Part shown: one piece after another, positions 10,510 to 29,326 of the stretch
How the letters are laid out: each line of letters begins with the position of its first letter
How positions within the stretch are numbered: the stretch's first letter is position 1
Virus record (IMG/VR): IMGVR_UViG_3300043443_000129
Span: 1 to 36,602 of that record
Origin: a virus
Taxonomy: Duplodnaviria; Caudoviricetes
Direction: 5' to 3' (one strand)
DNA length: 36,602 bases
Made by a program: the position numbers and the translations under genes
The notes under the pieces: generated by a model
The model's database searches: none
Told to the model about the DNA's origin: nothing
What the model saw: only the letters and a program-made list of their open reading frames with translations

Positions 10510-10537
10510 ATCCATAAAAGAATATCACAAAGAATGA
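10325..10537 (+). CDS. hypothetical helical protein
   Basis: 70 aa with normal composition; ATGA-coupled to the glycosyltransferase. Confidence 0.65.
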   Translation: MTKSQLSKQYHLAAEGVHRAMTELYENLHGEQGLPIAEKEQVEKMLQKFQACVREELNGIRESIKEYHKE

Positions 10538-11496
10538 TTAGTTTAATTCACATTGACGGCCTAGGCGGTGTCAACTACCATAGGCTTGTAACCCCATTGC
10601 GTAGGCTCCAAGAGCAGGGCGTAAACCTACACTGGATTGACAGCCTTAATAGCCTTAAGGATATGAACCTTGACGTGGTAGACAACCTGATTGTGTCAAG
10701 GAAGCTGTCCGTCAACGACCACAAGGCATTCAAACGTATGCTCGTCAAGCACAAGGTGAAGCTCATCTTGGATAACGATGACTACTGGGACTTGAGTAAC
10801 GCAAATCCTGCGAAGGGTTTATATGATGTCTACTACGGCCCAGACATCAAGAAAACGATTAAGATTGCTGACATCATCTGGACCCCATCTGAATACCTAG
10901 CTAAGCAGATGCAACAGATAAATCCAAACGCTGTCATTGAAATCATAAACAACGCCATTAACCTTGACGAGGAGCAATGGATAGACCAAGAGAAATACCC
11001 AAGCGACCTAGTGCGCTTTGGATATGTTGGAGCCCTAGGCCACGACTACGACGTACAGAGTATTGGCTATGACTTCAAAGACAAAGAGCTGTACTGCGGA
11101 CAGATAAGCGACTACCCGCAGATTCTAAACGCTAAGTATGTGATGTCCCCTAGGCCAATTCACTCATACGGTCAGATGTACAAGAGCTTTGATGTAAGCC
11201 TAGTACCATTGACCGCCAACAGATTTAATTGGAGCAAGAGCGACCTTAAGATTACTGAGGCAGCCGTTACAAAGACAGCCGTCATCGCATCAAGGACAAG
11301 ACCATACAACAAGGTAATTATCCACGGAGAGACCGGACTATTATGTTCAAACAAACAAGAGTGGAAGGAAGCCATTGAGATGATGACACCAGAGTTTGCT
11401 AAAACTCTTGCTCAGAATCTACACGACGCGTTGAAGGATTCTCCAGACCACAATCTAGATTTAGTTAACTTAAAGAGAGCCAAGTACTTAGTATGA
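10534..11496 (+). CDS. GT-B (GT4-like) glycosyltransferase
   Basis: GGVNYHRL..P, DNDDYW, RFGYVG...H..D, FDVSLVPL...FN.SKSDLK..EA and IIHGETGLL motifs. Confidence 0.85.
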   Translation: MISLIHIDGLGGVNYHRLVTPLRRLQEQGVNLHWIDSLNSLKDMNLDVVDNLIVSRKLSVNDHKAFKRMLVKHKVKLILDNDDYWDLSNANPAKGLYDVYYGPDIKKTIKIADIIWTPSEYLAKQMQQINPNAVIEIINNAINLDEEQWIDQEKYPSDLVRFGYVGALGHDYDVQSIGYDFKDKELYCGQISDYPQILNAKYVMSPRPIHSYGQMYKSFDVSLVPLTANRFNWSKSDLKITEAAVTKTAVIASRTRPYNKVIIHGETGLLCSNKQEWKEAIEMMTPEFAKTLAQNLHDALKDSPDHNLDLVNLKRAKYLV

Positions 11497-12029
11497 TACA
11501 CATTATCACACCGTGCCACCGGCCTAAGAACCTCAACGAGATAAAGAAGTCCATTCCTAAAGAGTGTAACTGGATTATCGTCTTCGATGCTGTTGTAGAT
11601 AATCCACCAAAGATTGACGGAGCCATATGCCTAGAGTCTGGAAAAACAGGAGACTTTGGTGCGCACAACAGAAACTTCGCTCTAGATACTTACCGGTTTG
11701 CGCCTGATGATTGGATTGCCTTTCTGGATAGCGACAACATTATGCACCCAGAATGGATTGAGTCCGTCAAGCCGCACCTCGACAAAGATATTGTAATGCT
11801 TACGTGGGGACAGCTTAATAAAGATGAGTCTGTCCGTCTAGTTCCAGTAGATGTACCAAAGGTTTGTGAGATTGACTCAGCCTCATTTATGGTTAAGTGG
11901 AAGCACGTCAGAGATATACGCTGGAGCAGAAACTATACCCACGATGGTGAGTACGCTGAAGACTGCGCCACAAGAGGCCGTGTACTTGCGCTAAACAAGT
12001 ACATCGCTTACTATAACTATATAGACTAG
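11493..12029 (+). CDS. GT-A (GT2-like) glycosyltransferase
   Basis: IHIITPCHRP, G...RN.ALD and FLDSDN (DxD) motifs. Confidence 0.8.
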   Translation: MIHIITPCHRPKNLNEIKKSIPKECNWIIVFDAVVDNPPKIDGAICLESGKTGDFGAHNRNFALDTYRFAPDDWIAFLDSDNIMHPEWIESVKPHLDKDIVMLTWGQLNKDESVRLVPVDVPKVCEIDSASFMVKWKHVRDIRWSRNYTHDGEYAEDCATRGRVLALNKYIAYYNYID

Positions 12030-12163: not shown

Positions 12164-12600
12164 CTTGTTACGAATCTTGTAGCCAAGATAAATAATAAAA
12201 TGACAAACAGGGATAAAAGAAGAATATCTTTTGCTTTATCTACCCAAGTTTTTGGATTCGGAACATACTCAACCACAGGCACTTTGACCTCTACATCTCT
12301 TACGATGTTGTAAGGCTTTACCTTGGTCTTGACGATGATTCTGTCTTCGTACTTGATAAGTGTTGTAACAACTGTATCGTTGCTAACAACCACACTGTCA
12401 ACTCCAGAAAAAGAAACTGTATCCGCATACGCAATCTCTTTGGTTACAACAGTATCCACTTTTACTATCACTCTTTCTTTGAGCAATGATGGATTCAATT
12501 GCGTTGCGCGGTTCAGATGCCACGTCGCGCGCTTGTTGGCCGAGCACCCCGATAAAAGGATGCTCATCAATAATGCCAGTGCAACAAATTTCTTCATCAT
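12151..12600 (-). CDS. lipoprotein with C-terminal TM helix, putative unimolecular spanin
   Basis: Signal peptide with lipobox LSGC, V/T-rich beta core, C-terminal TM ILLLSLFVILLFILA and basic tail. Confidence 0.65.
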   Translation of the reverse strand: MMKKFVALALLMSILLSGCSANKRATWHLNRATQLNPSLLKERVIVKVDTVVTKEIAYADTVSFSGVDSVVVSNDTVVTTLIKYEDRIIVKTKVKPYNIVRDVEVKVPVVEYVPNPKTWVDKAKDILLLSLFVILLFILATRFVTRWLR

Positions 12601-15600
12601 TTTTGAGAGTATAGTTTTCGGATGACAGCATAAAATTCTTCGTTAGGGCGGAATCCAGTCTCACGAAGGTCCTTCATTACGTCGTTAAACTCCTCAGGCT
12701 CAAGCTTTCCGAACTTATCGTAGAACACACGTGCGGCCTCGCTCGGCGTGTCTGCAAATCTAATGCTCATCAGGCTCTTATCCTTGTCGCTAGACGCGAT
12801 TGCGTAGAAGTATTTACGGCCAATACGCTCTCTCTTTTCGGCTGGCACAGTAGACAGAATCTTGTTGAGTTCCTCCTGATAGCGCTTGCCGTTCTTGTTG
12901 AAGTGGCCTTGCTCTTTGTGCTTGTTAGCAAGAGCTTTAATCTTCTCGCTAGCAAGGTAGTCTTCAGTAGACTCCTCAAGTTTAATCTCCTGCTGTGAGC
13001 CAGAACGCTTAACATAGTCAGGCCAGTTAGGATTCACTGAACGAACAAACACCTTAGTAGCGTTACTCTTGATGTTCTTGAGCTCCCTTGTGGCGCGCCC
13101 CTCAACAGACTCCTGAAGTTGCTTGTCGGAGAGGTCTACGTCTTCAATGTTAAGCGAATCGGTTGCAGCTCTGGCGGCCAAGTCAAGTACACCGTATGCT
13201 ACTCCAACGAGGAAGTTAGTCGTAGGGCTAGTGATAATTGACTCTACTCCAGCCTTCAATCGTGGAGCTGAGATGTCTGGGATGTACTCAGACTCAGAAG
13301 CCTTAGCGAGCGCCTTGTAGAAGTACTCTACGCGGTCACTGCTGCGACCTTCTGCGTAAGGCTCTACCTGACCAAAGATGTACTCTGGGACGATGGTAGC
13401 GTTACGGAATGAGTCATAGTTAAAGAATGACTTAGCAATAACAGACATTACTGGAACTCTGTTCATAAGGTCGTAGGCCTTGTCAATACCAGGAACGAAG
13501 AATGGAACACCGTCAGCAGCGTTCTCCCAAGCGAGCTTAACCTCCTCTTCCGAGAACTTCTTAGGCTTACCATTTATCGTAGAGGCCCAAGAGTGAGCCA
13601 GCATCTCGATAGGCACAGTAAGTGGGAGAAGCTGTTGTGGTTTCTTCAGTCGGATGTACTGACGCTTACCATCCTCATCCTTTGTTGGAAGTAGAATGAT
13701 ATGGTAGCGGTAGCGCATATACGGGTCTACATCCTCGTATTCATCGTCTCCGTAGGTAAGGATATTGTAGAACACAAGACCCATAAGGCCAGCGGCATAC
13801 TGGAAGAACTTCTCGGCAAACGCCTTTGGATTGTCCTTAATGCCATTGAAGGTAGCCAAAGTAGCTTGGAATGCTACGTTGAGGTACGGAGCAATAGCGT
13901 CAAGGTCTTTGGTAAGCGTTCCGCCCTTGCTAAAGTCAACAACAGAGCGAGCTTCGGCAGCAGCCATAAACTTAATCTTCTCAAGGCCATCCTTTGTCTT
14001 AGCTAAGTCTGGGTACTGCTGCTTGAGGTTAGAAATCATACGGCTGTAAACAGCTAGTCGAATACCAATTTCAAAGGTCTCGCCAGTAAATGCAATGCCC
14101 TTAGTAACTCTGTTCCACCGCTTAGCCAGAGCATACTCAAAGCTGTTCTTGTACTTCTCCTTAAAGCGGTACTCTGGACGGAACTCTTGGCTCATAAACG
14201 ACATACCTCCACCGTGGGCGAAATAGTCACGAACAAGCTCTTGGTCGGTAGCCTTTGAGTAGATACCAACAGCGTAATCCTTGGCCATCTTCAAGAGAGC
14301 CACTGGTAGTAGGCTGTCTTTGCCGTAGATTTTATTTCTGGCCATTACAACAGCCAGTGTTTCAGGAACCACTAAGCCAAACCCAAAGAAGATGTTGTAT
14401 CCAGTAGCAAAGGCACGAAGGACTGGCGCTCCAGAAAGAGACGAAAGAATCTTCTTAGCTCGTCCACCAACGCCAAAGAAGCTGCGGTTAGCGTCCTGCC
14501 ACTGAACATACATATCATTGCGTAGCTGGAATGCACGAAGCTTTCCATTCTCCTTGTAGAATACGTTGGTGAATCCTTTGTCAGCAGGGTCAACTTTGCT
14601 GTTGCCGTATTGGTCGGTAGCAATGCTTCCGTCAAACAACGTAGCGTAGTTAGCCTTGCGGAGGAAGTCAGCGCTGTCTGGAGAAATCTCCTTAGCGAGT
14701 TCTCTGTTGGCGATATTCTCGAAGCGCTTAGCCTCTTGAGATTTGTAGGCAAGAGACAACAGCATACGAGAGTCCATAAGCAGGTTGCCTTCGCTACCCT
14801 CTTGGATAGACTTAAGCACATCTTGCTTGAGTCCCATACCAGAGCGCTCAAACACTTCATCGTCAAGAGCCTCAAATATTTTCTCTACAAACTTGCGTGG
14901 CTCGTAGTCGTCCTTAACGAATCTGTCAAACGTCTGCTTGTCGATAAGGCCATTCTGCTCATAGGTTCTGAGGATGTTTCTGAACTCATCGAAGTAAGCA
15001 TCAGCACGCATATTGAGCTTTCCAAACATCGTGGCTCCGAGCTTGCGCTCCATTGCCGTAATGGCTTGGATGGCCTCCTCAGCGTTAAGCCCCTTTGGAT
15101 GTTTTGGGCGAACAGCATAATCGTCAGCGTACTCCTTGAGCTTTTCACGCTGCTGACGGATGTTCATCTTGTCGTTCTCAAGCTCACTAATGAACTTATT
15201 GTCAGGCTTAGACTTAGCCTTTTCTGACTTGATTAGCTCATCAATGGCCTTGATGTCAACGACCATCTTAGCGTCGAAGTTGTTGAGATTCTGTTCCGCT
15301 AATGCCTTGCGCTCATCCCAATTAGAATCAATCTGAATGACGCGACGCATAAAGATGATTTGGTCAAGAGCCTCAATCTCACCACGAGAAAGGTCTCTAT
15401 AGATTAGCTTCTCTGCGCGGTTGAACAAGTCCGTTGCGTTTGCCTGAGCACCAGCACGAAGCGTCATAAGGTTCTCGGCATAATCCATACCGCCATCAAG
15501 CATAGCCTCACGGATGTCTGCCTGACGGTCAAGCCACGCCTTCTTAGATAGGATGTTGGTCTTCTTCTCGTTGAACAACTTCATACGCTCTGCGTACTCT

Positions 15601-18600
15601 TTGTCCGAATCGTAAGATGCCTTAGCAACCTTATCCAATGCAGCGTCTTCTGCGCTCTCCTCGACGGGAGACAGCTTGATGCGCTTAGAGAATTGAACAG
15701 CCGAGCGAGTAAACTGCGTAGGCGAGTTCAGGTTCATAAAGATTTTTGGAATGGGGATGATTTCTCCATTCATACTATGAGCCTGGAACAGCTTAGCGTA
15801 CTGCTCTACGTAGTCAATCGGGTCAAGATTAAGGCGCTTTGAGTTCTTGCGAATCTGTGCTTCGTCAAGAATGACTCTAGCGTTTAATCTCTCTAGCGTT
15901 TCTTGAAGGAGATTAACCTTCTCCGTCTCTGATAAACTGTCGAAGTTTGCTTGAGAAAGAGAATTCATAAGCTCGTCATACTTTTCAGACGGGAAAGCAT
16001 ACAGCACTCCAAGCTTATCAACGTATTCAAAATCACCAAGAAGAACTTCGTTGTCCTTATTGACCTTAAGAGAGAATAGCTGCCCAACTTTGCGGATATA
16101 TGCTTGGTTATTTAGCTGTACTCGGCGGTAATTGCTAACTTCTTTATCGTGCTTATGTTCCTTAGACAGAAGGTCAATTGCCTCTTTTGCAACCTTCTCA
16201 TCATTAGACTTAGAGAGTTCGGTTAACTTATCAATATATTCATTGTACAAGCCCATCTTGTCATCTTTGCTGTCGTTAACAGCAGTAAAGTCAAGTCCAG
16301 CATATTCAATGTCAGGGAACATTGTGGGTATGGTGCTTACAATCTTGCTGAATATCTCAGATGTTCCAGAAGAAAGGAATGGAGGTATGTTGTTGTACCC
16401 AAATACTTTAGAGTCATAAGCTACGCCAATGATTCTAGTATTAGGATTGTAGGTAAGATTAATGGTGTACGTATCCTGAATCTCCTTGCCTTTGTAGTCT
16501 TCTTTAATTACGTCAAGACCACGATGAAGCATAGGCACTTTCCAAGTGTGTGGGAATGAAAGCGTTCTAGTGTATAGGTCTCTAGAGGCAATTCCTTGAC
16601 CCATAGTGGAAATAGCTAAGCGAAGGTCATCAATGGATACAACTCCTTCTTTATCAATCTTATCGTATATGCTTTTTATGCTTCTATCTTTATTTGAGGC
16701 CTTTTCGTTGTATCCTATTAGGCTGTTTAAAGTGTCCTTGATGTAGGACCTTAACTCGGTACTAGGCTCTGAAAACTCAGAAAGCATAACTCGGTATCCA
16801 GCCTCTCCGCTGGTTGAAACTGCAGGCTTATACAAGTAAGCTGTAAATGAAATTCCAATGTCAGAAATAGCTGCCTGCATCTCAGCCTTTAACTCAGGGA
16901 ACACAACATATCCAAAGTCGTTGGATACATAGTTTGGATTTACAAAAGTCTTAAATGCAACCTTTGATACGTTGAGCTTAGCTATAGCAATAGCGTTGCC
17001 AAGGGAAACAAGCTGTTCTTGGCTTGCGGCCTCGTTTGTAGATGCATCTACAATACCACGTTTAGTGAATTTAAGTCTGTGGTAGTTGTCAGATGAGCCA
17101 GCTCCAACCTTACGAACGTGAACAATGCCTTCTTTAGCGTCAGCCAAAACAGCATCTACGTTTGAAGGCATCGCCTTGGAAAGACTGACATCTTGGTGTA
17201 CGATATATGCGTTTAGCTCAAAGCTCCTGCTTGCTGGAGCCATAGCAAGCATAAGAGCAATTCCTTGTCCATCCTCACCCATCAAAGACTTTTGAATAGA
17301 AGCTGATGTATCAGTGTCAATATCCTCATCAACGTATGGGATGAGCTCCTCAAGGGGAGTGTCTAGCTCTGAGTCAGTAATGAACGAATCTAGTCTTAGA
17401 GAAGCCAGATTAGAGCTGGACAACGATGAAGTTAGCTTGTCAACAATCTTAGCCCGTTGAACTTGATACTCATCAAGCAACGCTTGGAACGAAGCAGAGC
17501 TGTCGTCATACCCCGCTGGGTTTAGTGGAGATGTGAACGCTTGGTATAGCAACTCGACATTACCAGTTGCCATATGTACTTCGCTCATATAGCCGCGGAT
17601 GTACAGCTTCGATAGTTCGCTCAGTGGAGCATCACCAGTCTTGTAAACCACATCATCTCTGGTCATACGCTCAACCATAGCGTCAGCATCCGCAGCAAAC
17701 TCTTTAGCTTTGACCTTACTAAATAGAGAGGCCATAATGCGCTCCTTGGCCTCCTCTAGCGTCTTGGTCTTATACTGGCTAAACGAAGGAACCTCAGTGG
17801 CAGAAGCCAACAGATTCGCAAAGTCATCAAGACGAGATGTAGAATTAAATTCTGCAATAGACATTGGAGTCGGACGTAATTGCTCGTCGAACTCAACCTT
17901 TGCAACGTCTACTACGTTGTTTGCGAATGAACTCTGTGCAGCCGATTCAGCAGAATTGTTTCTGATGTAGTCTTGGAATGCATCAGCAAGTGCAGTATAT
18001 GCAAGAGCTTCACGAATCTCTTTGTTATTTAGTTCAATGCTCTCGTATACCTTATTCCCCTTTATTTTATTGTATAATCCTTCGCTCATTGCGATTTCGT
18101 TGAGCTCTTCGTAGCTGTCGACTGCTTGATTGACAATAGGGTCTGCTCCTTTTTTACTAGAGAGAACCGAGGACATCACGGAACTAAATGCGCTAGGATT
18201 CTGTTCCTTCAGCATCTCAATAAATACAGCACTGTAGCCGTAGATTGCTTGGTCTACGTTCTTAGCTGCTGCATTGATGACGATGAATTTATCTGCCTTG
18301 ATGTCCTTAGGGATATTGTATCCCTTCTTACGGAAGGACTCAACGGCATCTACTGGCATCATCTGCTCGACAACTGTTCCCGTTCTGAGGTCTGGGAAGT
18401 TGAAGAATCCAACTTTTGATACGTAGTCAAACTTCTTGTCGTTGACAACCACAAAAGGCAGATTCATTTTGGTGGACAGCTTTTCAATAAGCGGAAGCAC
18501 CGTTGACAGGGCGGGGTTCAGGTTCTGAATTTCCTCAGTAGGAACAATGTCAGCGTCAATGTCAATGCGCACCTCAGCATCTTCAGCGAGGAAGCGACGC

Positions 18601-21600
18601 ACGATGGTCTGTTTCTCTTGACGAGTAGAGAACTGGTACTTGTTCAGCGCACTACGTACGACAGTACCATCCTTAATACGTACGGCCTTGCCAGCAACGA
18701 AGCTGTTGCGCATCTCAGTCAAGAAGTCAAGAAGCTCCTTCTTGTTTTGGATTCGCTTCTTGATTCCAAGAAAATTCAACAGCTTGTTAATCAGGGCCTT
18801 AACCTTGTCAAAGAAGGTTGGGTGTTGGTCAAGCTGGTCAAACAGCTCGGGCTCAGAGAACTGGGCCAAGAACTCAGTAAGGGTCTCCTTCGGATTGCCT
18901 TCCTTGAGGATGACGCGCATACGACGCATAGCCGTAGTACGAGCAAGCTCATCAGGAGCGGTCTCTACAATCTTACGAATCTCCTCCGTAAGACGGTTAG
19001 CAAAGAACGAATCCTTAGATACAAGAGCATCTACGATTGGGTGAATGATTTCGTGGCGAATCACACGGAACTCATTCTTGCTGATTTCATTGTCCTTCGT
19101 AGGCGTTACTACTACGTGGATTTCTCCATTCTTATCATCATAGTATCCCTCTACATCACCAGTACGCTGGTTTTCTGGAAGAGTGCTGTCAATAGACTCC
19201 TGAGTGTAGTGCACAACCATCTTCACGTCAGGAAGCACGTTGTAAAGCACGCTCAAGTATCGGTCAAGAACAGCAGATGTCTTCTTAGAGAGTCGAGAGA
19301 CAGGAGCGCCAATCTTAGCTACCTCAATGTCACTAATAGCCTCACGCTCAACATCACTCATCGCTGTAGACGGCTTAGCAGCAGGACGAGGCTTAGCCTT
19401 CACCTTCTTCTTGGTCTCTATCTTGCGGGTAACAGTTTCGTATGCCTGCTCAAAATCGTACTGCGGAATATCTCCAAGCTGTTCAATCTGTCCTTGAATA
19501 GCAATATCAAGGGCAAGGTTTGCGTCCTCTGCGGACTCACGAGCCTTAGAAAGCTTGGCCGCCTCTTCGGTGCGGTTAAGAATGACAAACGTCTGGGGAG
19601 ATACATCCTGACCAAGCGGGGTGCGCTTGCGGACACGAGCGCCCATAATGCGGCCGTCGTTGTCGAATATTGACTCTACGTATTCAATGTCAGTAATACG
19701 AGGGAATGCATCGGTAATGCGGCGGCTCTCAATGCGCTGAACGCCATCAGCCCACGTGTCACCAAGTCCTTTCTTGATTTCCTCTGGCGCAGCACGTCTG
19801 TATGTTACAACATCTACATTACCATCAGGCTGTTCCTCAAGGATAGATACAGCACCGTAGCGCTCGTCGCCTACCCTTACTGGGGCATTACGTAGTCGCT
19901 CTCCGAGGGGGAGCTTTCCGACCTTTTCTGCTTTAGGGCGCTCAACTCTTTTAGGAGCTCCAACTGGGACTCTTTCGGTAACGTTTTGAGCAGTAATCTC
20001 TGTTTTGTTGTCATAGTAGTCAATTTCATCAAAAAGTTCTGTAAGAAGTTCGGTCGCCGCTTCTTTCTCGGCGCTATCCGGCATAGCAGCAACATTGCTG
20101 ATAGCCGAGATAATCTGTTCCTGTGCAGCATTGGCATCGTTGATGTCTACTTCTAGGCCTTCCTGCATAGCTTGGAAGATTGGCAGAGAAGCAACAGCAT
20201 CAACCTCAGCCTCAAACTGCGGTAGAATTACTTCTTCTTGCTCAGATACTTGAAGTACTCCACCTGCTTCAGGCGCTTCTTGGCCTGCTCCAGCGACAGG
20301 TTGGGCTTCGACAACGGTTTCCCCTTCTCCGACAATACTTGGTACTTGTCCTTCTTGCGAACTATCATAGCGGTTAGTTATTTCTTTGAGTTGATTATAC
20401 GTATCAAAAATCTGGGTCTTGAGTACATCTTTTGCAGTTTCATCTTGACTTTCAACACGTTGCTGAGCTAAGGTTTCAAGCTCCGTACTTAAGACATATG
20501 CCTTATTCTGGTCCTCAGGAGTCATTGACTCGAAGTACTGGATACTAGACTTCATCTCTCCGTCACGGCGAGCCTGAAGGTCAATAATCTGTCTTCCAAT
20601 AACCTCACGGTCTTGAGGAGTTGGAGCGGACAGCATATCCTCTTTGAGCTTATTGATGGCGGTGTCAATCTTCTTTACCTCGAAGTTGCGACCAATCTTA
20701 TTGGCCAAGAAAATAGGAGCCTCTACAGCAGACGGAGCTGACAGGAGTGCAGCCATACCTACGCCACTTGCAGCAGAACGCTTAAATGCATCAAATGCGC
20801 CATTAAGCGTTACCTCCTGACCTTTAGCGAGACCATCTGTAACGTATTGTCCTACGCCAGTAATGCCTTCACCAAGAGCGTTTTCAGAAAGGTTTACACC
20901 ACTACGTTTTAGTGCTCCGCCAATAAAGTCCTTGAGTGCCTCCTCGGATGCCTTTCTTGACGAGGAAACAGCCATACCACGAAGCGCACGAGCGGCAGCA
21001 CGAGAGCCAGCTAATTCACCAATGCCTTCAAATGCACCAGTTCCGATAGTGTATCCAGCCTTGCCCATAGGACTAAGCTCCTTAAACCACTTCTCGTCTT
21101 TTACGTCACCGTATGTCTGAGCAGCAGAAAGTGACGACATAACAGCATACGCCGCATACGGATTCTCCAGCGCCATAGGAGCCGTAGCCAGCATAATCGG
21201 TGCGCTTTCAGCCGTGGTGTTTAGTGCAATACGGGCTGCGTTAGAGTAATCATTGTCCTTTAATGAATCGTAGAAATCCTGCTCAAACTGAGTGGTGCTT
21301 CTACGCATTGACTCATCAAACAGTTTATCTGAAATCTCATACGGGATTCCAAATCTGTCTACATCAATACCAATGCTGTTCTTGATACCCTTCTCCAGAG
21401 AGTAAACGCCTCGGCTTAGGTAAGCAGCAGCGTCAAGAAGAGGGTTTTGGTCATTGTAACGCTTGTCTCCAGTAAGGTCTAAACCAATGCCTTCTTCGAG
21501 CCATATATCATCTTCAACCTTCTTAAGGTAAATAGGGTCTTCTCTACGGTCTTCTGGGATAGCCTGAAGCACATTAGCCTTAACCTGTTTCTTGATGTCA

Positions 21601-22190
21601 TCTTGGATTGCAGCAGCGTACTTTTCCTTCTTTAGATTCAGGTCTTTATTCTTCGCAAACTGAATCTGCTGGTCCATAAAGGCAGCATTCTCTGGGCCAC
21701 GCGCCTGCTTGAGCGCTTGAGCACGCTCTACTTCTGGACTCAGACGAGTATCATTTTTGGCTCTGTTCTCGGCTATCCGAGTGAACAGATTTTGCGGGTC
21801 GCCACCGAGCGTAGAAATCTCTTGCTCAGATAGTTCGCCTGATTTTACAGCATTTTGAATAGTGCTTAGTGCAGCAGAATTGAAGATGTCTTCTCTGCTG
21901 ATTCCAAGCTTACGAGACTCACTCTTTGGCTCTTCCTTTTTTAAAGGCTGCTGTGAAGGTATAGCTGTCTTTGCCGATGTAGACGGTGCAGGAGCCTCCA
22001 TAGATTCCTGCCTGTCCTGTAAACCACCGAAAAGCGACTCTTCTTTTTTTTTTACGGTACCGTACTTCTTTTTGAAGTCTCCTACAACAAACTGAATATT
22101 TTCATCTGACTCGCCATTGGCAACCATCTTGCTGACGATGCCATCAAGTCTACTTCTGTCTTTTTCGGATAAAATCAGTTCGTCTTCCAT
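12597..22190 (-). CDS. giant polyvalent virion/ejection protein (3197 aa): zincin metallopeptidase + degenerate zincin + LPD38-like C-terminus
   Basis: VEGYYD...IHV...RHEIIH...ETLTEF zincin (~aa 1046); EARSVVDFSKGG...APYLNVAFQ and YEDVDPY..YRY.II...YIRLKKP LPD38-like motifs; position after the tail and ejection genes. Confidence 0.8.
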   Translation of the reverse strand: MEDELILSEKDRSRLDGIVSKMVANGESDENIQFVVGDFKKKYGTVKKKEESLFGGLQDRQESMEAPAPSTSAKTAIPSQQPLKKEEPKSESRKLGISREDIFNSAALSTIQNAVKSGELSEQEISTLGGDPQNLFTRIAENRAKNDTRLSPEVERAQALKQARGPENAAFMDQQIQFAKNKDLNLKKEKYAAAIQDDIKKQVKANVLQAIPEDRREDPIYLKKVEDDIWLEEGIGLDLTGDKRYNDQNPLLDAAAYLSRGVYSLEKGIKNSIGIDVDRFGIPYEISDKLFDESMRRSTTQFEQDFYDSLKDNDYSNAARIALNTTAESAPIMLATAPMALENPYAAYAVMSSLSAAQTYGDVKDEKWFKELSPMGKAGYTIGTGAFEGIGELAGSRAAARALRGMAVSSSRKASEEALKDFIGGALKRSGVNLSENALGEGITGVGQYVTDGLAKGQEVTLNGAFDAFKRSAASGVGMAALLSAPSAVEAPIFLANKIGRNFEVKKIDTAINKLKEDMLSAPTPQDREVIGRQIIDLQARRDGEMKSSIQYFESMTPEDQNKAYVLSTELETLAQQRVESQDETAKDVLKTQIFDTYNQLKEITNRYDSSQEGQVPSIVGEGETVVEAQPVAGAGQEAPEAGGVLQVSEQEEVILPQFEAEVDAVASLPIFQAMQEGLEVDINDANAAQEQIISAISNVAAMPDSAEKEAATELLTELFDEIDYYDNKTEITAQNVTERVPVGAPKRVERPKAEKVGKLPLGERLRNAPVRVGDERYGAVSILEEQPDGNVDVVTYRRAAPEEIKKGLGDTWADGVQRIESRRITDAFPRITDIEYVESIFDNDGRIMGARVRKRTPLGQDVSPQTFVILNRTEEAAKLSKARESAEDANLALDIAIQGQIEQLGDIPQYDFEQAYETVTRKIETKKKVKAKPRPAAKPSTAMSDVEREAISDIEVAKIGAPVSRLSKKTSAVLDRYLSVLYNVLPDVKMVVHYTQESIDSTLPENQRTGDVEGYYDDKNGEIHVVVTPTKDNEISKNEFRVIRHEIIHPIVDALVSKDSFFANRLTEEIRKIVETAPDELARTTAMRRMRVILKEGNPKETLTEFLAQFSEPELFDQLDQHPTFFDKVKALINKLLNFLGIKKRIQNKKELLDFLTEMRNSFVAGKAVRIKDGTVVRSALNKYQFSTRQEKQTIVRRFLAEDAEVRIDIDADIVPTEEIQNLNPALSTVLPLIEKLSTKMNLPFVVVNDKKFDYVSKVGFFNFPDLRTGTVVEQMMPVDAVESFRKKGYNIPKDIKADKFIVINAAAKNVDQAIYGYSAVFIEMLKEQNPSAFSSVMSSVLSSKKGADPIVNQAVDSYEELNEIAMSEGLYNKIKGNKVYESIELNNKEIREALAYTALADAFQDYIRNNSAESAAQSSFANNVVDVAKVEFDEQLRPTPMSIAEFNSTSRLDDFANLLASATEVPSFSQYKTKTLEEAKERIMASLFSKVKAKEFAADADAMVERMTRDDVVYKTGDAPLSELSKLYIRGYMSEVHMATGNVELLYQAFTSPLNPAGYDDSSASFQALLDEYQVQRAKIVDKLTSSLSSSNLASLRLDSFITDSELDTPLEELIPYVDEDIDTDTSASIQKSLMGEDGQGIALMLAMAPASRSFELNAYIVHQDVSLSKAMPSNVDAVLADAKEGIVHVRKVGAGSSDNYHRLKFTKRGIVDASTNEAASQEQLVSLGNAIAIAKLNVSKVAFKTFVNPNYVSNDFGYVVFPELKAEMQAAISDIGISFTAYLYKPAVSTSGEAGYRVMLSEFSEPSTELRSYIKDTLNSLIGYNEKASNKDRSIKSIYDKIDKEGVVSIDDLRLAISTMGQGIASRDLYTRTLSFPHTWKVPMLHRGLDVIKEDYKGKEIQDTYTINLTYNPNTRIIGVAYDSKVFGYNNIPPFLSSGTSEIFSKIVSTIPTMFPDIEYAGLDFTAVNDSKDDKMGLYNEYIDKLTELSKSNDEKVAKEAIDLLSKEHKHDKEVSNYRRVQLNNQAYIRKVGQLFSLKVNKDNEVLLGDFEYVDKLGVLYAFPSEKYDELMNSLSQANFDSLSETEKVNLLQETLERLNARVILDEAQIRKNSKRLNLDPIDYVEQYAKLFQAHSMNGEIIPIPKIFMNLNSPTQFTRSAVQFSKRIKLSPVEESAEDAALDKVAKASYDSDKEYAERMKLFNEKKTNILSKKAWLDRQADIREAMLDGGMDYAENLMTLRAGAQANATDLFNRAEKLIYRDLSRGEIEALDQIIFMRRVIQIDSNWDERKALAEQNLNNFDAKMVVDIKAIDELIKSEKAKSKPDNKFISELENDKMNIRQQREKLKEYADDYAVRPKHPKGLNAEEAIQAITAMERKLGATMFGKLNMRADAYFDEFRNILRTYEQNGLIDKQTFDRFVKDDYEPRKFVEKIFEALDDEVFERSGMGLKQDVLKSIQEGSEGNLLMDSRMLLSLAYKSQEAKRFENIANRELAKEISPDSADFLRKANYATLFDGSIATDQYGNSKVDPADKGFTNVFYKENGKLRAFQLRNDMYVQWQDANRSFFGVGGRAKKILSSLSGAPVLRAFATGYNIFFGFGLVVPETLAVVMARNKIYGKDSLLPVALLKMAKDYAVGIYSKATDQELVRDYFAHGGGMSFMSQEFRPEYRFKEKYKNSFEYALAKRWNRVTKGIAFTGETFEIGIRLAVYSRMISNLKQQYPDLAKTKDGLEKIKFMAAAEARSVVDFSKGGTLTKDLDAIAPYLNVAFQATLATFNGIKDNPKAFAEKFFQYAAGLMGLVFYNILTYGDDEYEDVDPYMRYRYHIILLPTKDEDGKRQYIRLKKPQQLLPLTVPIEMLAHSWASTINGKPKKFSEEEVKLAWENAADGVPFFVPGIDKAYDLMNRVPVMSVIAKSFFNYDSFRNATIVPEYIFGQVEPYAEGRSSDRVEYFYKALAKASESEYIPDISAPRLKAGVESIITSPTTNFLVGVAYGVLDLAARAATDSLNIEDVDLSDKQLQESVEGRATRELKNIKSNATKVFVRSVNPNWPDYVKRSGSQQEIKLEESTEDYLASEKIKALANKHKEQGHFNKNGKRYQEELNKILSTVPAEKRERIGRKYFYAIASSDKDKSLMSIRFADTPSEAARVFYDKFGKLEPEEFNDVMKDLRETGFRPNEEFYAVIRKLYSQK
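20228..20368 (-). CDS. nested small basic protein (46 aa) in the +1 frame of the giant gene
   Basis: MIVRKKDKYQVLSEKGKPLSKPNLSLEQAKKRLKQVEYFKYLSKKK; A-rich leader; resembles a recalled stand-alone phage family ending AxKRLxQ(V/I)EYFK. Confidence 0.7.
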   Translation of the reverse strand: MIVRKKDKYQVLSEKGKPLSKPNLSLEQAKKRLKQVEYFKYLSKKK

Positions 22191-24436: not shown

Positions 24437-27400
24437 TTATTGTTGTCCTAGTTCATTGTGTAATTTACTTGGGCTAAATACTGCATTAACAGCGTAAAGC
24501 TCAATCTCGTTAGGGTCTAGATTACTAAGTCTAAACTTAGAGAAGTAATCACGCATCTGGTCTCCCTCGATAAGTGGGTTCGCAATGGCAATAACAGTAT
24601 TTCCATTAGCAAGGCTTACGGGAGCGCCAGAGCAGCTAATCGTGTTGCTTCCAGTGATTCCAGTAACCGTAACGCTTAAGGTAACCATAGTGTTGCCAGA
24701 CACCTTGAATAAAGATGCGCCAATCGGGAATGCTACAGCTCCAACAGGGGCAGTAAACGTAATGCTAGAGCCAACCACTCCACCGGTTGCAACATCACCA
24801 AGGACAAATACCTCAGACGTTCCAGACAGCGACGTAATCGTTGACGTACCAGTGTTTGCACTGCTGTCCCTTGGTACATAAGCGTAGTAGTAACGCTCTT
24901 TCTCCTCAAAATCAGCACTAGCAATTTGTGTTGATTGGTCCGTGTTAGAGACAGCAACAGCCCAAGGAGCGTCACCTTCAATGCTCATAGCCTCGTAGCA
25001 CTTAACCATTGAGTTATTTGATGATGAAATAACCTCTACAATAGAACCTGCGGGGGTATTCGCTCCATAGTACGTGGTGCGGGGAACAGCATCAGTGTGT
25101 ACGTACATCGTGCCACCTTTAAACGTGTACAACGTGTCATCTACGCTGGCTATTGCTTCTGGTCGGTATGAGTACAGAGTGTTCCATACTCCGTCGTTTA
25201 CGTCAAACGCAGCAGTAAAGTCGTTTACAAATGAACTCGGAGAGCCGATGCTTCCATCATAGTCACCACAGTCATTGGTGAATGAGAAGTTACCCTGAGC
25301 AAGGTCAAGAGCAATCGTGACGAAGAAGTCATACGTAGAGTTCGTGGCCACTCCGTAGATTACGCCAGTCTGACCAATGAACTCCTCGCCGACGTAAGCA
25401 GGCTGTCCGTCAATCAGCTTATCCAAGAAGACAATGGCGTTAAGGCTGTACTGGAACTCGTCGCATATCGTTTGGAACTCACGAATCTCAGTAGAGAATG
25501 TGAAGATGTCGTCATCGTCAAACTCAATGTCAGATAGAACTCTGTCTCCGGCAGTATTCGTTTGTACATCGTATGTGTATGTAGTAGTACCATCTGTAAC
25601 AGTAACGACAGCACTGCTGATAAGGTCAGTAGACACAATGTATTCCTCTGCCTCGTTGTCAACGCCACCTACGACTTTCTGCCTAGAGGTAAGCGTAGTG
25701 ATGTATCGGAAGTTCTCCTTGAAGAAAGCGTCCATCTTGGCCTCGCTGATAAGCGTAATGCCGTCTCTAGAGATGCGCACAATCTTACCGGCACGAACAT
25801 CAGCAAAGTAGATTCTACCGCGGTCTACGCCAAGAGACTCGGGATTGTTGTTGATGCCATAATCTCCCAAGTAATAGTTAGCCACACCAAAGACAGCATT
25901 AGATACTGTCAACGACTCAAGGCCTTCTGATGTTTGGATGACATTTCTGCCTACGGGCAGCCAACCAGCCTTGCGCTCTTGGATGACATACATACGGTCG
26001 TCATCGCCCACAAGCTGTTTAATAGAGCCATATCTATAATCTAAATCCTTGAAGTTAACCAGCGATGGGTTAAAAGAGGAAAGCCCAAGACGTTGATTTG
26101 TAATAAGATACGGCTCAGAATAAACTATCGAAGATTGATAGAATGTCGTCTTTGAATCTGGAATAACAGCGTGAGGTCTTCCGATAGATATAGAGTTAGA
26201 CGGGAACATATCGCTAACAGAGTAGTCCTCAATGAATGAGAACTCAAGGTTGTTGGCGTATGCCTTCTCTCCAACCTTTAGCAAGCGGGGTCTGTAGTAG
26301 CTATCTCCAGACGAAAACTGAATAACAGCATCTGAGCTGTTGGTCAGGTTCAGCGTATAGGTTGCAATAGAGAAAGAGCCGCTAGTGATATTTGCGTAGA
26401 ACACGTAGCTGTATATTCCATTTACAGCTGGGTATGCGTTGTTTACAACAAGAGTATTACCGCTTCCATCGGTAAGGATGTCACCCTTAAATACTTGAAC
26501 GTTAGCGTAGAAGATTAAGCCATCTCCATCAGCGGCTACCTCTACATCAACTGGACTAACCACAGTACGTTGTCCTACGTGGACTCCATTTACAACTGGG
26601 TAGTTCTCGCCAATCTCGTAGAAAATCTGTTCTGACATCGGGCGGTTCTGACGATAGATTTCTATTACGCAGTCATTGCGCCAGTTGTCCACTCCTGTAA
26701 TGATGCTGTAGGTATCCCACCCAACAAAATCAACAGTTCTAATCGCCAAGAATCTTCCCGTAGTATTGAACGTATCCTCGTCGCTTGTCAGGTCAAGTAC
26801 TGGGTTGGTATCAATGTCGTCTATAAAGTCAAAGTAACCAAGTACCTCCACATCAATAGACGAGCGCTGCAGGTTGCCGTACTGAACAATACGAAGTCTG
26901 TCCCCTTCTTGGAACTTGTACTCAATGTCAGCAGCAAACATCTCTCTGTACGAGTCACTCTTTCCTTCAAGTGAGCGCATAGACAGATAGATAACCTCTT
27001 CGAATGATGCGACGCCAGAGAATGGTTTAGCCTGAAGGTTTGTGGCAGTGTACGCTCTTGTTATAGAGTACTGTAGTTTATTGGTAACGCTGTTAATCTT
27101 AGCATATACAGGAGCCCACTTGACGGCCCACAATGGAGCGTTATGCTTTACACGAAGAACAGTGTCTACCCTTCCGTATAAGTCATTGTCTAGCGAACGA
27201 ACATCGTACCAGTCTACGTACATATCCCGTAGAGGCTGTACTCCTCCGTTTCGGTTGAACAAGTCGTAGTATACAATGCCAAAAGAATGGGTGGCTCCAG
27301 CTTTAAACGTCTGGTATCCATTGACATTGCCTTTAGTCAATATGTTAGCCTGAAAAGAAATGGCGTTGTCTACGTCGTCGGTATTGTCCAAGAAGAACGT

Positions 27401-29326
27401 TTCTCCATTGGTGATAAGCGGAGTGGTAGAAGTCCCAAACTTTGGTACAAATTGGTTGCCAGACTGAGTTACCTTATTGAATTCATTGTAGTCTTCTCCG
27501 TCACCCTGATACGTAATAGATGGAGCGTCAACAAATTCAATCTGGTTAAACAAGACATTAGTTGCTGGAAAAGCCTCGCCAAGTGATTTACCCCTAGTAA
27601 ACAACGACCTGAGCATTGAAGTAGGGGGAAATATGTTTACTGCTGAATTTATAGCGGTAGCCACATTAAAGTTGTATCCAACTTTAGCAACTAAGGCAGC
27701 GCTTTCAACGCTCATATTAAATGTCAGCCTAGACGATGTTTCATCTCCTAGCGAAACACTAATCTGACCTGAGCCATTGAAAAACATCCATTTACTGTCG
27801 TTCGTACTTCCTTGAAGGTCATCTACTTCTACAATGCGGCTAGCGTATTCAAAATCAGTAACATCAGAATCAAGAACTACGTTGTAGGTGTCGATTATAG
27901 AAGTCTTAATGAGGTCAACAATCTGAGCTTTTGTAGAGCCAGATGGTACATTGATGTACTTAGATATAGAAAATGGAGAGGCTTTTACATTCAATCCGCC
28001 TCCACTTGGCTGAACTCTACTAGAAATCAATCCAGCGTAGTCGTGCTCATTTTGCGTGGCTTTATCTTTTTGTACCCACTGAATATACATACCGCCAACC
28101 TCAAACGATATACATCCAAGGTTCAGCGAAAAAGCTAGGTTTAATATGGAGTCTTCGGCAGTAGAGGCTGGAATGTTGCTAATGTCAATGTCAAATCCTT
28201 TCCTTCTTAACTCAACAGTTGCGTGGTATGTTGATGGATAGGACACCTCAATGTCGTAATTGCTTGGCTGCGGAAAGTAGTTTGGAAGAACGTCAACATC
28301 TGTGCGTATGTTCTCACGTCCAGCCGTGTATCCTCCAAAGACAAGTCTGTTCCCTACGATGGTGACAGACTCAGCAGAGAAGGGAACATTGTCGTAAATT
28401 TTCTTTACCTCATCTCCAGACACCGGAGTGTACAGCTTGCTGTTGTCAAACGTAACGGTCTGAAAAGCAGTAGTCGGACTGTTGTTTACAGTTCCAATCT
28501 CGTAGAACGTACCAATGTTTCCATTGCGAGCCAAGACAATAATCTCCTTGACATCAGCTACGCTTGTTGGAACAGATATTGTTAAGGTGTTATCCTTTAG
28601 CTTTTCTTCTTCAGACAAAATTCCATCAAAGAACTGGGCAGGAGAAACAGCCAACTCAGAATACGGAGAAATAGCTGAACGCTCCCCGTCCTGATATACG
28701 TACTGAGCAGCGAACTGAAATGTAGCCTCGTAAAGATTATTCTGCCTTAGCGTTGGATTCGTAGAGAATACAAACGTAGGAGGAGTCATTGGAGGCTGTT
28801 TGGCCACCGCAGTACAGATTAACTTCTCAGAATCTGTCCCCGAGGTGAATGCGGCAGGATATAATCCTAAAAGAGCCCGTGTTGCGTTTATCTTTCTTGG
28901 CTCGTTGATTCCGTCCGTGAAGTACAGAAGAACCTCATCAGAAAGGTTCTTGATAACTGTAGCTCTTACCGTAGCGTAGCGGACAAATCCAAGCGTTGAT
29001 GAGCGATAAACAAGCTGTGCCTCATTGGAAGAAGACGAGAACCGATAGATAGAGTCATCATTGTTCTCGTTCCAAACGAAGAAATATATCTCGCCGTCCT
29101 GCGGATTTGATACTACACCAATTACCTCATTATCGCCATTTGGCAATTCGTCTCCAGCCCTAAATGGAATGTCGTCGTTGCCATAAGCGTTCTTGATTAC
29201 GCCACCATTGCCGTCAGAGTCAGCGGAGATACGAACGTTTAAAGCGTCCGTCATCTCAACTGTCTTTACTAAACGAGCGTCATCATCCTTATTAAGGTAT
29301 CTCGGTATAAGCTTGTCTATTGCCAT
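24437..29326 (-). CDS. tail stabilisation / nozzle (muzzle) protein, P22 gp10-like, crAss-like type
   Basis: N-terminal LNKDDDARLV...DALNVRIS, LYFTDGINEPRKIN, FAAQYVYQDGERSAISPYS, GNRLVFGGY, FKAGATHSFGIVYYD, YGSIKQL and YGINNNPES motifs. Confidence 0.85.
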   Translation of the reverse strand: MAIDKLIPRYLNKDDDARLVKTVEMTDALNVRISADSDGNGGVIKNAYGNDDIPFRAGDELPNGDNEVIGVVSNPQDGEIYFFVWNENNDDSIYRFSSSSNEAQLVYRSSTLGFVRYATVRATVIKNLSDEVLLYFTDGINEPRKINATRALLGLYPAAFTSGTDSEKLICTAVAKQPPMTPPTFVFSTNPTLRQNNLYEATFQFAAQYVYQDGERSAISPYSELAVSPAQFFDGILSEEEKLKDNTLTISVPTSVADVKEIIVLARNGNIGTFYEIGTVNNSPTTAFQTVTFDNSKLYTPVSGDEVKKIYDNVPFSAESVTIVGNRLVFGGYTAGRENIRTDVDVLPNYFPQPSNYDIEVSYPSTYHATVELRRKGFDIDISNIPASTAEDSILNLAFSLNLGCISFEVGGMYIQWVQKDKATQNEHDYAGLISSRVQPSGGGLNVKASPFSISKYINVPSGSTKAQIVDLIKTSIIDTYNVVLDSDVTDFEYASRIVEVDDLQGSTNDSKWMFFNGSGQISVSLGDETSSRLTFNMSVESAALVAKVGYNFNVATAINSAVNIFPPTSMLRSLFTRGKSLGEAFPATNVLFNQIEFVDAPSITYQGDGEDYNEFNKVTQSGNQFVPKFGTSTTPLITNGETFFLDNTDDVDNAISFQANILTKGNVNGYQTFKAGATHSFGIVYYDLFNRNGGVQPLRDMYVDWYDVRSLDNDLYGRVDTVLRVKHNAPLWAVKWAPVYAKINSVTNKLQYSITRAYTATNLQAKPFSGVASFEEVIYLSMRSLEGKSDSYREMFAADIEYKFQEGDRLRIVQYGNLQRSSIDVEVLGYFDFIDDIDTNPVLDLTSDEDTFNTTGRFLAIRTVDFVGWDTYSIITGVDNWRNDCVIEIYRQNRPMSEQIFYEIGENYPVVNGVHVGQRTVVSPVDVEVAADGDGLIFYANVQVFKGDILTDGSGNTLVVNNAYPAVNGIYSYVFYANITSGSFSIATYTLNLTNSSDAVIQFSSGDSYYRPRLLKVGEKAYANNLEFSFIEDYSVSDMFPSNSISIGRPHAVIPDSKTTFYQSSIVYSEPYLITNQRLGLSSFNPSLVNFKDLDYRYGSIKQLVGDDDRMYVIQERKAGWLPVGRNVIQTSEGLESLTVSNAVFGVANYYLGDYGINNNPESLGVDRGRIYFADVRAGKIVRISRDGITLISEAKMDAFFKENFRYITTLTSRQKVVGGVDNEAEEYIVSTDLISSAVVTVTDGTTTYTYDVQTNTAGDRVLSDIEFDDDDIFTFSTEIREFQTICDEFQYSLNAIVFLDKLIDGQPAYVGEEFIGQTGVIYGVATNSTYDFFVTIALDLAQGNFSFTNDCGDYDGSIGSPSSFVNDFTAAFDVNDGVWNTLYSYRPEAIASVDDTLYTFKGGTMYVHTDAVPRTTYYGANTPAGSIVEVISSSNNSMVKCYEAMSIEGDAPWAVAVSNTDQSTQIASADFEEKERYYYAYVPRDSSANTGTSTITSLSGTSEVFVLGDVATGGVVGSSITFTAPVGAVAFPIGASLFKVSGNTMVTLSVTVTGITGSNTISCSGAPVSLANGNTVIAIANPLIEGDQMRDYFSKFRLSNLDPNEIELYAVNAVFSPSKLHNELGQQ

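Follow-up and report, generated by a model that had tools for sequence, protein, structure and literature searches.

A conserved micro-gene nested in the +1 frame of a giant phage gene and a candidate role for its product

A conserved small gene, hereafter micro-gene 1, is nested in the +1 frame of a giant gene of a tailed phage (Caudoviricetes; IMG/VR record IMGVR_UViG_3300043443_000129). The DNA analysed (i.e. the window) is this whole virus record of 36,602 nucleotides, with a completeness of 62%, and both genes lie on its minus strand. On balance, the nested gene product is probably a free small basic protein that would be packed into the head and injected with the DNA, and that may bind nucleic acid.

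Coding evidence and selection on the small frame

Translation of the minus strand from the ATG at 20368 to the TAA at 20228 yields the 46-residue, 5.5-kDa peptide that a first-pass annotation, made from the sequence alone, had reported. This ATG lies 1,822 nt (i.e. 607 codons plus 1 nt) into the open reading frame (ORF) 22190-12597, which places the peptide in the +1 frame. In the main frame the same bases read as an acidic linker, as that annotation had described, with an isoelectric point (pI) of 4.05 as compared to 10.22 for the +1 peptide. Contigs from other DNA runs (X3 and X4) carry most of micro-gene 1 and its start with 0–1 differences, indicating that the ORF is not an assembly artefact. 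The peptide contains no cysteine, no histidine and no hydrophobic signal, and was without a match in Pfam or, at an E-value of 0.01, in PHROG. Length was rejected as evidence for a gene, as the +1 frame of the giant gene holds eight ATG-initiated ORFs of at least 40 codons, seven of which fail on conservation. In an alignment of homologous giant genes, only micro-gene 1 retained its ATG and an open frame in all four relatives (4/4), with purifying selection on the inner frame.

Constraint on the small frame was observed in several comparisons. Across four giant genes that are 47–87% identical, third-position identity of the host frame was 0.87 in the nested 45-codon segment and 0.46 gene-wide. 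The maximum among 2,999 overlapping distant segments was 0.74, the nested segment being the highest (z 5.7), and in none of these distant segments was the third codon position more conserved than the first. For 12 distinct sequences (i.e. the window and 11 sequences from a host-driven scan), the same bases exhibited 77% identity in the small frame and 57% in the host frame; the small frame was above the host frame in 65/66 pairs of these host-found loci and the order was reversed in none. Loci found with the peptide (40 ungapped of 42 non-redundant loci, a set biased by selection on the peptide) gave the same order in 780/780 pairs, with ratios of non-synonymous to synonymous change (pN/pS) of 0.15–0.35 in the small frame versus 1.9–2.4 in the host frame.

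A by-product, or a remnant in decay, in a region where the host linker or an RNA element bears the constraint would fit the presence of eight ORFs of comparable length and the 14.5% of synonymous linker reshuffles that remain open in the +1 frame. This explanation is already contradicted, and its probability is close to nil: entropies of 0.65, 0.48 and 1.10 at the three small-frame codon positions of the peptide-found loci form a small-frame pattern, peptide identity is 80–85% where the flanking host sequence is about 30% identical or less, and the best of 5,000 synonymous reshuffles (4,923 scored) reached 36.2 bits, never near the 83.4 bits of the real frame under a profile that included the query as 1 of 121 rows. 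Third-position identity, pN/pS and reshuffle scores agree with the dual coding, constrained in the +1 frame, that had been proposed. Purifying selection acts on the small frame, confirming micro-gene 1 as a conserved +1-frame gene within the giant gene.

Distribution, capture and initiation of nested copies

A family-profile search of viral sequences matched 436 stretches, and locus counts were made on the best 80. Nested copies, all in the +1 frame, account for 63 of these loci and the other 17 stand alone; a start codon is present in 63/63 nested copies (61 ATG and 2 GTG). In the non-redundant set, the nesting host frames span 935–3,336 codons. A shared N-terminal region is absent from 24/42 non-redundant hosts, and in 16 of the 18 hosts having that region the micro-gene starts 8–12 codons past it. 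The suggestion that nesting is a general feature of such giant genes was borne out by these counts and by hosts of at least two architectures. Host-frame patterns from outside the ORF found five loci, with micro-gene 1 kept in 5/5. A scan for relatives of the giant gene, using the host C-terminal region (12909..15545) as the query, found 28 loci: 17 nested, three stand-alone, seven without the gene and one truncated. In three loci (L107:12879, L110:12879 and L114:12906), gene 1 stands alone within 5 nt past the stop of the giant gene whilst a second nested gene, micro-gene 2 (see below), is still nested.

Non-nested copies were already stop-free in the host register in 22/90 cases and in the other shifted frame in 0/90. 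The +1 register is forced because methionine followed by a codon starting with A makes TGA in the other shifted frame, an arrangement found in 38/42 nested copies. Capture of a pre-existing gene, as first proposed, is plausible given the 22/90 non-nested copies open in the host register. The family tree (85 rows, 46 columns) is poorly resolved, and one nested clade was not rejected (approximately unbiased test, P 0.08).

The quoted leader of the window's copy is A-rich as claimed, with A at −6, −11, −13 and −14, but has G at −3 and T at −12. A +1-frame TAA (20380-20378) lies three codons ahead of the nested ATG. For 42 nested starts and 336 decoys, A was present at −14, −13 and −6 in 76%, 78% and 69% of the starts as compared to 29–33% of the decoys, and the folding energy of the start region was −3.8 versus −9.5 kcal/mol. 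The window's nested start outscored 99.4% of 3,237 decoy +1 ATGs and was level with the median of 184 real starts. The accessible text of PMC6847099 gives A at −3, −6, −12 and −13 as positive start determinants in Flavobacterium, and the A-rich nested starts match the determinants given there. No promoter-like site was found on the minus strand near the ORF using a consensus for the Bacteroidota motif, and independent initiation on the late polycistronic message is very likely. The nested product is very probably translated from its own start in the window phage.

A programmed +1 frameshift into this frame would produce a truncated giant protein with a C-terminal module. In-frame fusions are common in the module family, and in one 395-aa database protein (P0188) a host N-terminus of the L014 type continues in frame into the module; this is a single record and may be a natural indel or an assembly error. 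Frameshifting is unlikely, with a very slight probability in our estimate, because start codons are universal in nested copies and +1-frame stops lie upstream. No Met occupies the module start in 92 of the 120 best longer proteins (the 28 with a Met are mere upstream extensions of stand-alone genes), as compared to the start codon in every nested copy, and a +1-frame stop occurs within 10 codons upstream in 27/42 nested copies, directly before the ATG in L073.

The module family and the proposed role of the nested product

A stand-alone family, suggested in the first-pass annotation, does exist: a homology search found 156 short homologues with a best E-value of 3e-13. The family is unnamed and comprises 2,874 clusters at 50% identity, with a further 1,596 longer proteins carrying the module. 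Signature residues A29, R32, L33, E37 and K40 are invariant in the alignment, and the window peptide qualifies as a member. AlphaFold predicted a beta-hairpin and a long helix for the peptide (predicted local distance difference test score 93). A PDB sequence search and Foldseek gave nothing significant for it, and atlas look-ups returned unnamed clusters only. VIA-align gave a best Z of 5.2, with 3.6 for the lambda Int DNA-binding domain and 3.4 for a GCC-box domain, all within noise. Modelling of the peptide in complex with the host N-terminal region scored 0.00, which weighs neither way.

Domains were scanned in 72 of the 120 best longer proteins. Two portals carry the module C-terminally, an S49 protease and an SU10 capsid domain protein carry it N-terminally, and it is internal in proteins that contain an Acb1, InPase, GNAT, deaminase, ligase, NUDIX or DUF2213 domain; in cultured phages it makes up the N-terminal 45 residues of an annotated prohead protease. 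For 60 internal fusions with non-redundant flanks, among which related sequences are counted, a Glu before the module was paired with a Glu just after it in 12/14 cases versus 5/46 others, and an Asn with an Asn in 4/4 versus 5/56 others. These matched flanks suggest excision by the head protease of each phage. Stand-alone viral copies (13 non-redundant) also had links to the head: 9/13 lie in head or packaging modules, with 6/13 directly upstream of the terminase large subunit (four by PHROG and two by homology to those) and 3/13 near portal, capsid or adaptor genes. An unannotated stand-alone copy was noted in Aeromonas phage 1233 (L087:3980-4132), two genes downstream of an 812-aa protein. 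In another locus (L033:6512-7549), a reverse-transcriptase gene, possibly of a diversity-generating retroelement, lies two genes upstream of a stand-alone copy.

Gp133 of Yersinia phage TG1 matches the family profile (E 1.7e-5; HHalign 83.6%; 29% identity) and sits in a tRNA cluster near ipII and ipIII. Comparison with the T4 record showed its N-terminal 10-mer to have the pattern of T4 ipII/ipIII; the first 10 residues of T4 internal proteins suffice for packaging, according to the available part of PMC9026906. TG1 gp133 matches 451 cultured-phage records, KVP40-like phages included, and module matches were also obtained in Bas79 and Bas80. Both CBA120 orf223 and RaK2 524 contain a leader-like segment and the module, whilst Klebsiella phage KP27_202 (L212:2015-2638) has a capsid-targeting-like N-terminus, Acb1 and then the module, suggesting that Acb1 is packaged. 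TG1 gp133, CBA120 orf223, RaK2 524 and the C-terminus of KP27_202 match PHROG 3684 (E 1e-10 to 2e-25), a central family member doing so only at E 0.008. Gp134 of phiR1-RT is 100% identical to TG1 gp133 and is present in particle tables from liquid chromatography–tandem mass spectrometry with two peptides and 21% coverage (PMC6893735, in the portion available). With regard to the possible packaging of Acb1, phiR1-RT gp57B is listed there with nine peptides. T4 and phi-pp2 gave no family match, a phi-pp2 protein having been a fold match, and an Ackermannviridae proteome could not be mapped to a module homologue from the accessible content of PMC10892097.

The late message would yield the micro-gene 1 product through initiation at the nested start codon. 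To judge from family members, this free small basic protein would be packaged in the head, enter the cell together with the phage DNA and might bind nucleic acid there. Packaging and injection of the protein are, by analogy, reasonably probable; nucleic acid as the target, most likely incoming phage DNA to be coated or shielded, is proposed tentatively. Nesting may represent a third way to deliver a free module at the time of head assembly, with the giant protein tolerating the captured DNA as a linker. The early guess of a core peptide fits the family evidence; nothing was found in support of a chaperone.

A product that serves head assembly or DNA packaging from within the cytoplasm or prohead, and is not injected, would suit the copies directly upstream of the terminase large subunit and the fusions to proteases and portals. 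Against this, the capsid-targeting leaders and cleavage-like flanks would release the module inside the head, and the module is found alongside unrelated head systems while many relatives lack it, so that only a slim chance is given to this role. A further alternative is that the product is injected but targets a host defence protein, as do T4 Ip1-Ip3, rather than nucleic acid. The Ip-type leader and ip/tRNA-region position in TG1, the fusion to Acb1, the polyproteins with Acb1, SAM-lyase-like and deaminase domains, and the inhibition of GmrSD enzymes by T4 Ips (available text of PMC12373910) are in its favour. We consider this target unlikely, as Ips are described as poorly conserved in the accessible part of PMC9026906 whereas the module retains 50–70% identity between phages as well as between genomes of bacteria and archaea.

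Relatives are encoded in 200 stretches found by a species-genome search, of which the best 80 loci were counted. Only three are nested in giant ORFs; most of the others stand alone and many of them have a Shine-Dalgarno site, the genomes being those of Acidobacteriota, Patescibacteria, Micrarchaeota, Bathyarchaeota and others. Nested copies were observed in giant ORFs of Prolixibacteraceae and Pelotomaculum genomes (L117:6001, L120:6001 and L144:6004), which are likely prophages, and the Prolixibacteraceae record has two. In 16 of the best 80 genome loci the gene shares its strand with 23S rRNA and starts at most 900 nt upstream. These 16 loci, L155:6002-6136 among them, have the stand-alone family gene directly ahead of the 23S rRNA gene and lack a 16S primer motif. 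If the product bound the ribosome or rRNA, phages, by injecting or expressing it, would take over translation and cells would retain it for a related job; the small, basic and highly conserved protein, the strong Shine-Dalgarno sites of stand-alone copies and the 23S linkage are consistent with such a target. This reading is rather improbable: 15/16 of the 23S-linked loci are Acidobacteriota and probably reflect one event, a promoter-like site (read by eye) separates the gene from the rRNA in L155, and no sequence match was found to any solved chain. The cellular copies speak for a conserved target rather than for a fast-changing defence protein, and they keep the ribosome a live rival.

Several points weigh against a packaged, injected protein that binds nucleic acid. 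The nested protein is without a capsid-targeting leader; TG1 gp133 has one, and KP27_202, CBA120 orf223 and RaK2 524 have leader-like segments. Nucleic-acid binding is weakly inferred from charge and from fold matches within noise (Z 3.4–4.3), and both translation and virion placement in the window phage are deduced from sequence. Particle detection of Gp134, a distant member (29% identity), gives modest support, as likely carry-over proteins are also listed, the same table in the available part of PMC6893735 having DNA polymerase, helicase and ribonucleotide reductase at three peptides. The flank test included related sequences. A is present at −3 in only 45% of nested starts, the window having G, and the A-richness of these starts partly reflects host codon use. 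In the host-driven scan, 15/17 nested loci had already been found with the peptide, and the query alignment was built from nested hosts. The gene is absent from 7/27 informative host-found loci and their contigs (one complete); whole-record searches found no family member in the contigs of these seven loci and of the truncated one (one of the eight complete) or in the complete genomes of Cellulophaga phage phi46:3 and Maribacter phage Panino. From its absence in the seven loci and these two phages, the gene is accessory and dispensable in the wider group. Cellular copies (77 of the best 80 outside giant ORFs) are mostly stand-alone genes with ordinary cellular neighbours, a setting that a role confined to the virion leaves unaccounted for.

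A broader proposal, which we regard as doubtful, would make the conserved 42-residue module an injected factor of nearly all phages that has a single conserved target (nucleic acid or ribosome). It would be delivered by capsid-targeting leaders, polyproteins or hidden genes and would exist as a cellular gene in Acidobacteria, the candidate phyla radiation and archaea, with the linkers of giant ejection proteins acting as landing pads for several hidden genes of this kind and the giant genes as cryptic operons.

Genomic setting, further nested genes and known systems

The source of the window is an uncultured aquatic phage, with matching DNA in runs from freshwater, estuary, marine and aquaculture samples. 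No RNA run was listed among the DNA and RNA runs matching the window, one labelled RNA-Seq being probably DNA. Genes for a primase-helicase, ERF and an exonuclease are located on the plus strand, and the minus strand carries a run of virion genes with the giant gene near its end. As gene context, the PF25729 protein points to a podovirus-type virion module. The replication module ends with two glycosyltransferase genes (10534-12029, plus strand), which converge with the virion module. The C-terminal third of the giant protein has 24–28% identity to a phi46:3 protein (annotated as virion structural) and a Panino protein, a likeness from which a Bacteroidota host is tentatively assigned to the window phage. 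The designation of an ejection protein is likely, judging from gene position and the identity to the phi46:3 virion protein; as to that of a polyvalent protein, Pfam and PHROG searches over the whole length of the giant protein gave no match. Raised third-position identity (0.60–0.64) was also observed at the 5′ end of the giant gene (21906-22190, minus strand) around a conserved A-run, where no conserved alternative ORF was seen.

Table 1. Positions of the giant gene, its regions and nested genes, and a virion gene of the same run
Feature	Positions	Strand	Remarks
Nested micro-gene 1	20228..20368	-	46 aa; +1 frame; predicted beta-hairpin and C-terminal helix; family overlapping PHROG 3684
Acidic host linker	20229..20369	-	Residues 608-654; same bases as micro-gene 1
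Start region of micro-gene 1	20369..20393	-	A-rich, weakly structured; without Shine-Dalgarno
Nested micro-gene 2	19877..20014	-	45 codons; same +1 frame; first 26-30 residues conserved; predicted helix-helix
Host giant gene	12597..22190	-	3,197 aa; likely internal virion (ejection) protein; without Pfam or PHROG match
Host N-terminal region	20394..21296	-	About residues 299-599; common to 18/42 non-redundant hosts
Conserved host C-terminal region	12909..15545	-	Common with Cellulophaga phage phi46:3 and Maribacter phage Panino
Virion protein with crAss muzzle C-terminal domain (PF25729)	24437..29326	-	1,629 aa; same gene run, upstream of giant gene

Micro-gene 2, which the first-pass annotation overlooked (20014-19877), is likely to be a real gene on sequence grounds. 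It forms the next synonymous-site peak in the giant gene, with a third-position identity of 0.74. A viral scan with micro-gene 2 found 13 loci; the copies examined were 11 of these (two near-duplicates omitted) together with the window, L110 and L036, and all were nested, in the +1 frame and initiated by ATG. Over 25 codons the small frame was more conserved than the host frame in 44/55 pairs and never less, both frames being equal or nearly so among close relatives. Its start reached the 85th percentile only. Micro-gene 2 had no match in Pfam or PHROG and atlas scores below 0.9, and no stand-alone copy was seen in viral contigs or in the protein database (five proteins, without context). Relatives occur in hosts without a nested gene 1 (L107, L109, L110 and L114). 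A third family of +1-frame nested ORFs (46–50 aa) was noted in giant genes (L025:11160, L014:11175 and L022:10695), and giant genes without gene 1 (L109:7308, L115:9492 and L116:8604) hold single +1 nested ORFs whose starts resemble those of genes and whose sequences are protein-like.

As gene callers drop such genes, conserved proteins go unnoticed within the giant virion genes of phages, and what looks like a linker is in some cases a by-product of a second frame. Through its family, an otherwise anonymous micro-ORF becomes a candidate injected factor with hundreds of cultured phage records, E. coli phages included, and the spread into cellular genomes suggests a conserved target of the module. 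Searches of literature listings (subscription papers and bioRxiv supplements not covered) showed no description of the module or of nested genes in giant virion genes. PHROG 3684, whose function is unassigned, resembles the family through its cultured-phage members, the nested form lying outside that annotation.

Like micro-gene 1, the ShiLan domain (PMC11855218, as far as its text was available) is a pre-existing gene inserted out of frame, with the host frame left open as a loop. ShiLan is a selfish homing HNH nuclease in an actinophage methylase, whereas the 46-aa protein has no nuclease domain and the module is kept at one site across hosts less than 30% identical in the flank. A homing endonuclease of the ShiLan type was rejected for micro-gene 1 on its length of 46 aa, the lack of Pfam and PHROG matches and the lack of His and Cys.

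The T4 internal proteins Ip1-Ip3 are likewise small, basic and non-essential (accessible parts of PMC9026906 and PMC12373910), and module members occur in T4-like phages with the same kind of 10-residue leader, one being in a particle proteome. Differences are that no T4 homologue was found, that the window protein is leaderless and that the module is far more conserved and also present in cellular genomes. By analogy, the module family may work like the T4 internal proteins, the window's copy not itself being one.

A further likeness in gene arrangement is Rz/Rz1 of lambda, described in the available text of PMC6139136 as a short gene wholly embedded in the +1 frame and missed by gene callers, for which both embedded and separated forms exist. 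A two-component spanin was rejected for the window, as the peptide lacks cysteine and a hydrophobic signal and its host protein has 3,197 aa. In lambda, Rz and Rz1 join in a single lysis complex, whereas here two nested genes lie in a host gene of the virion module, with overlap in a linker, and the module family also occurs stand-alone and fused in frame.

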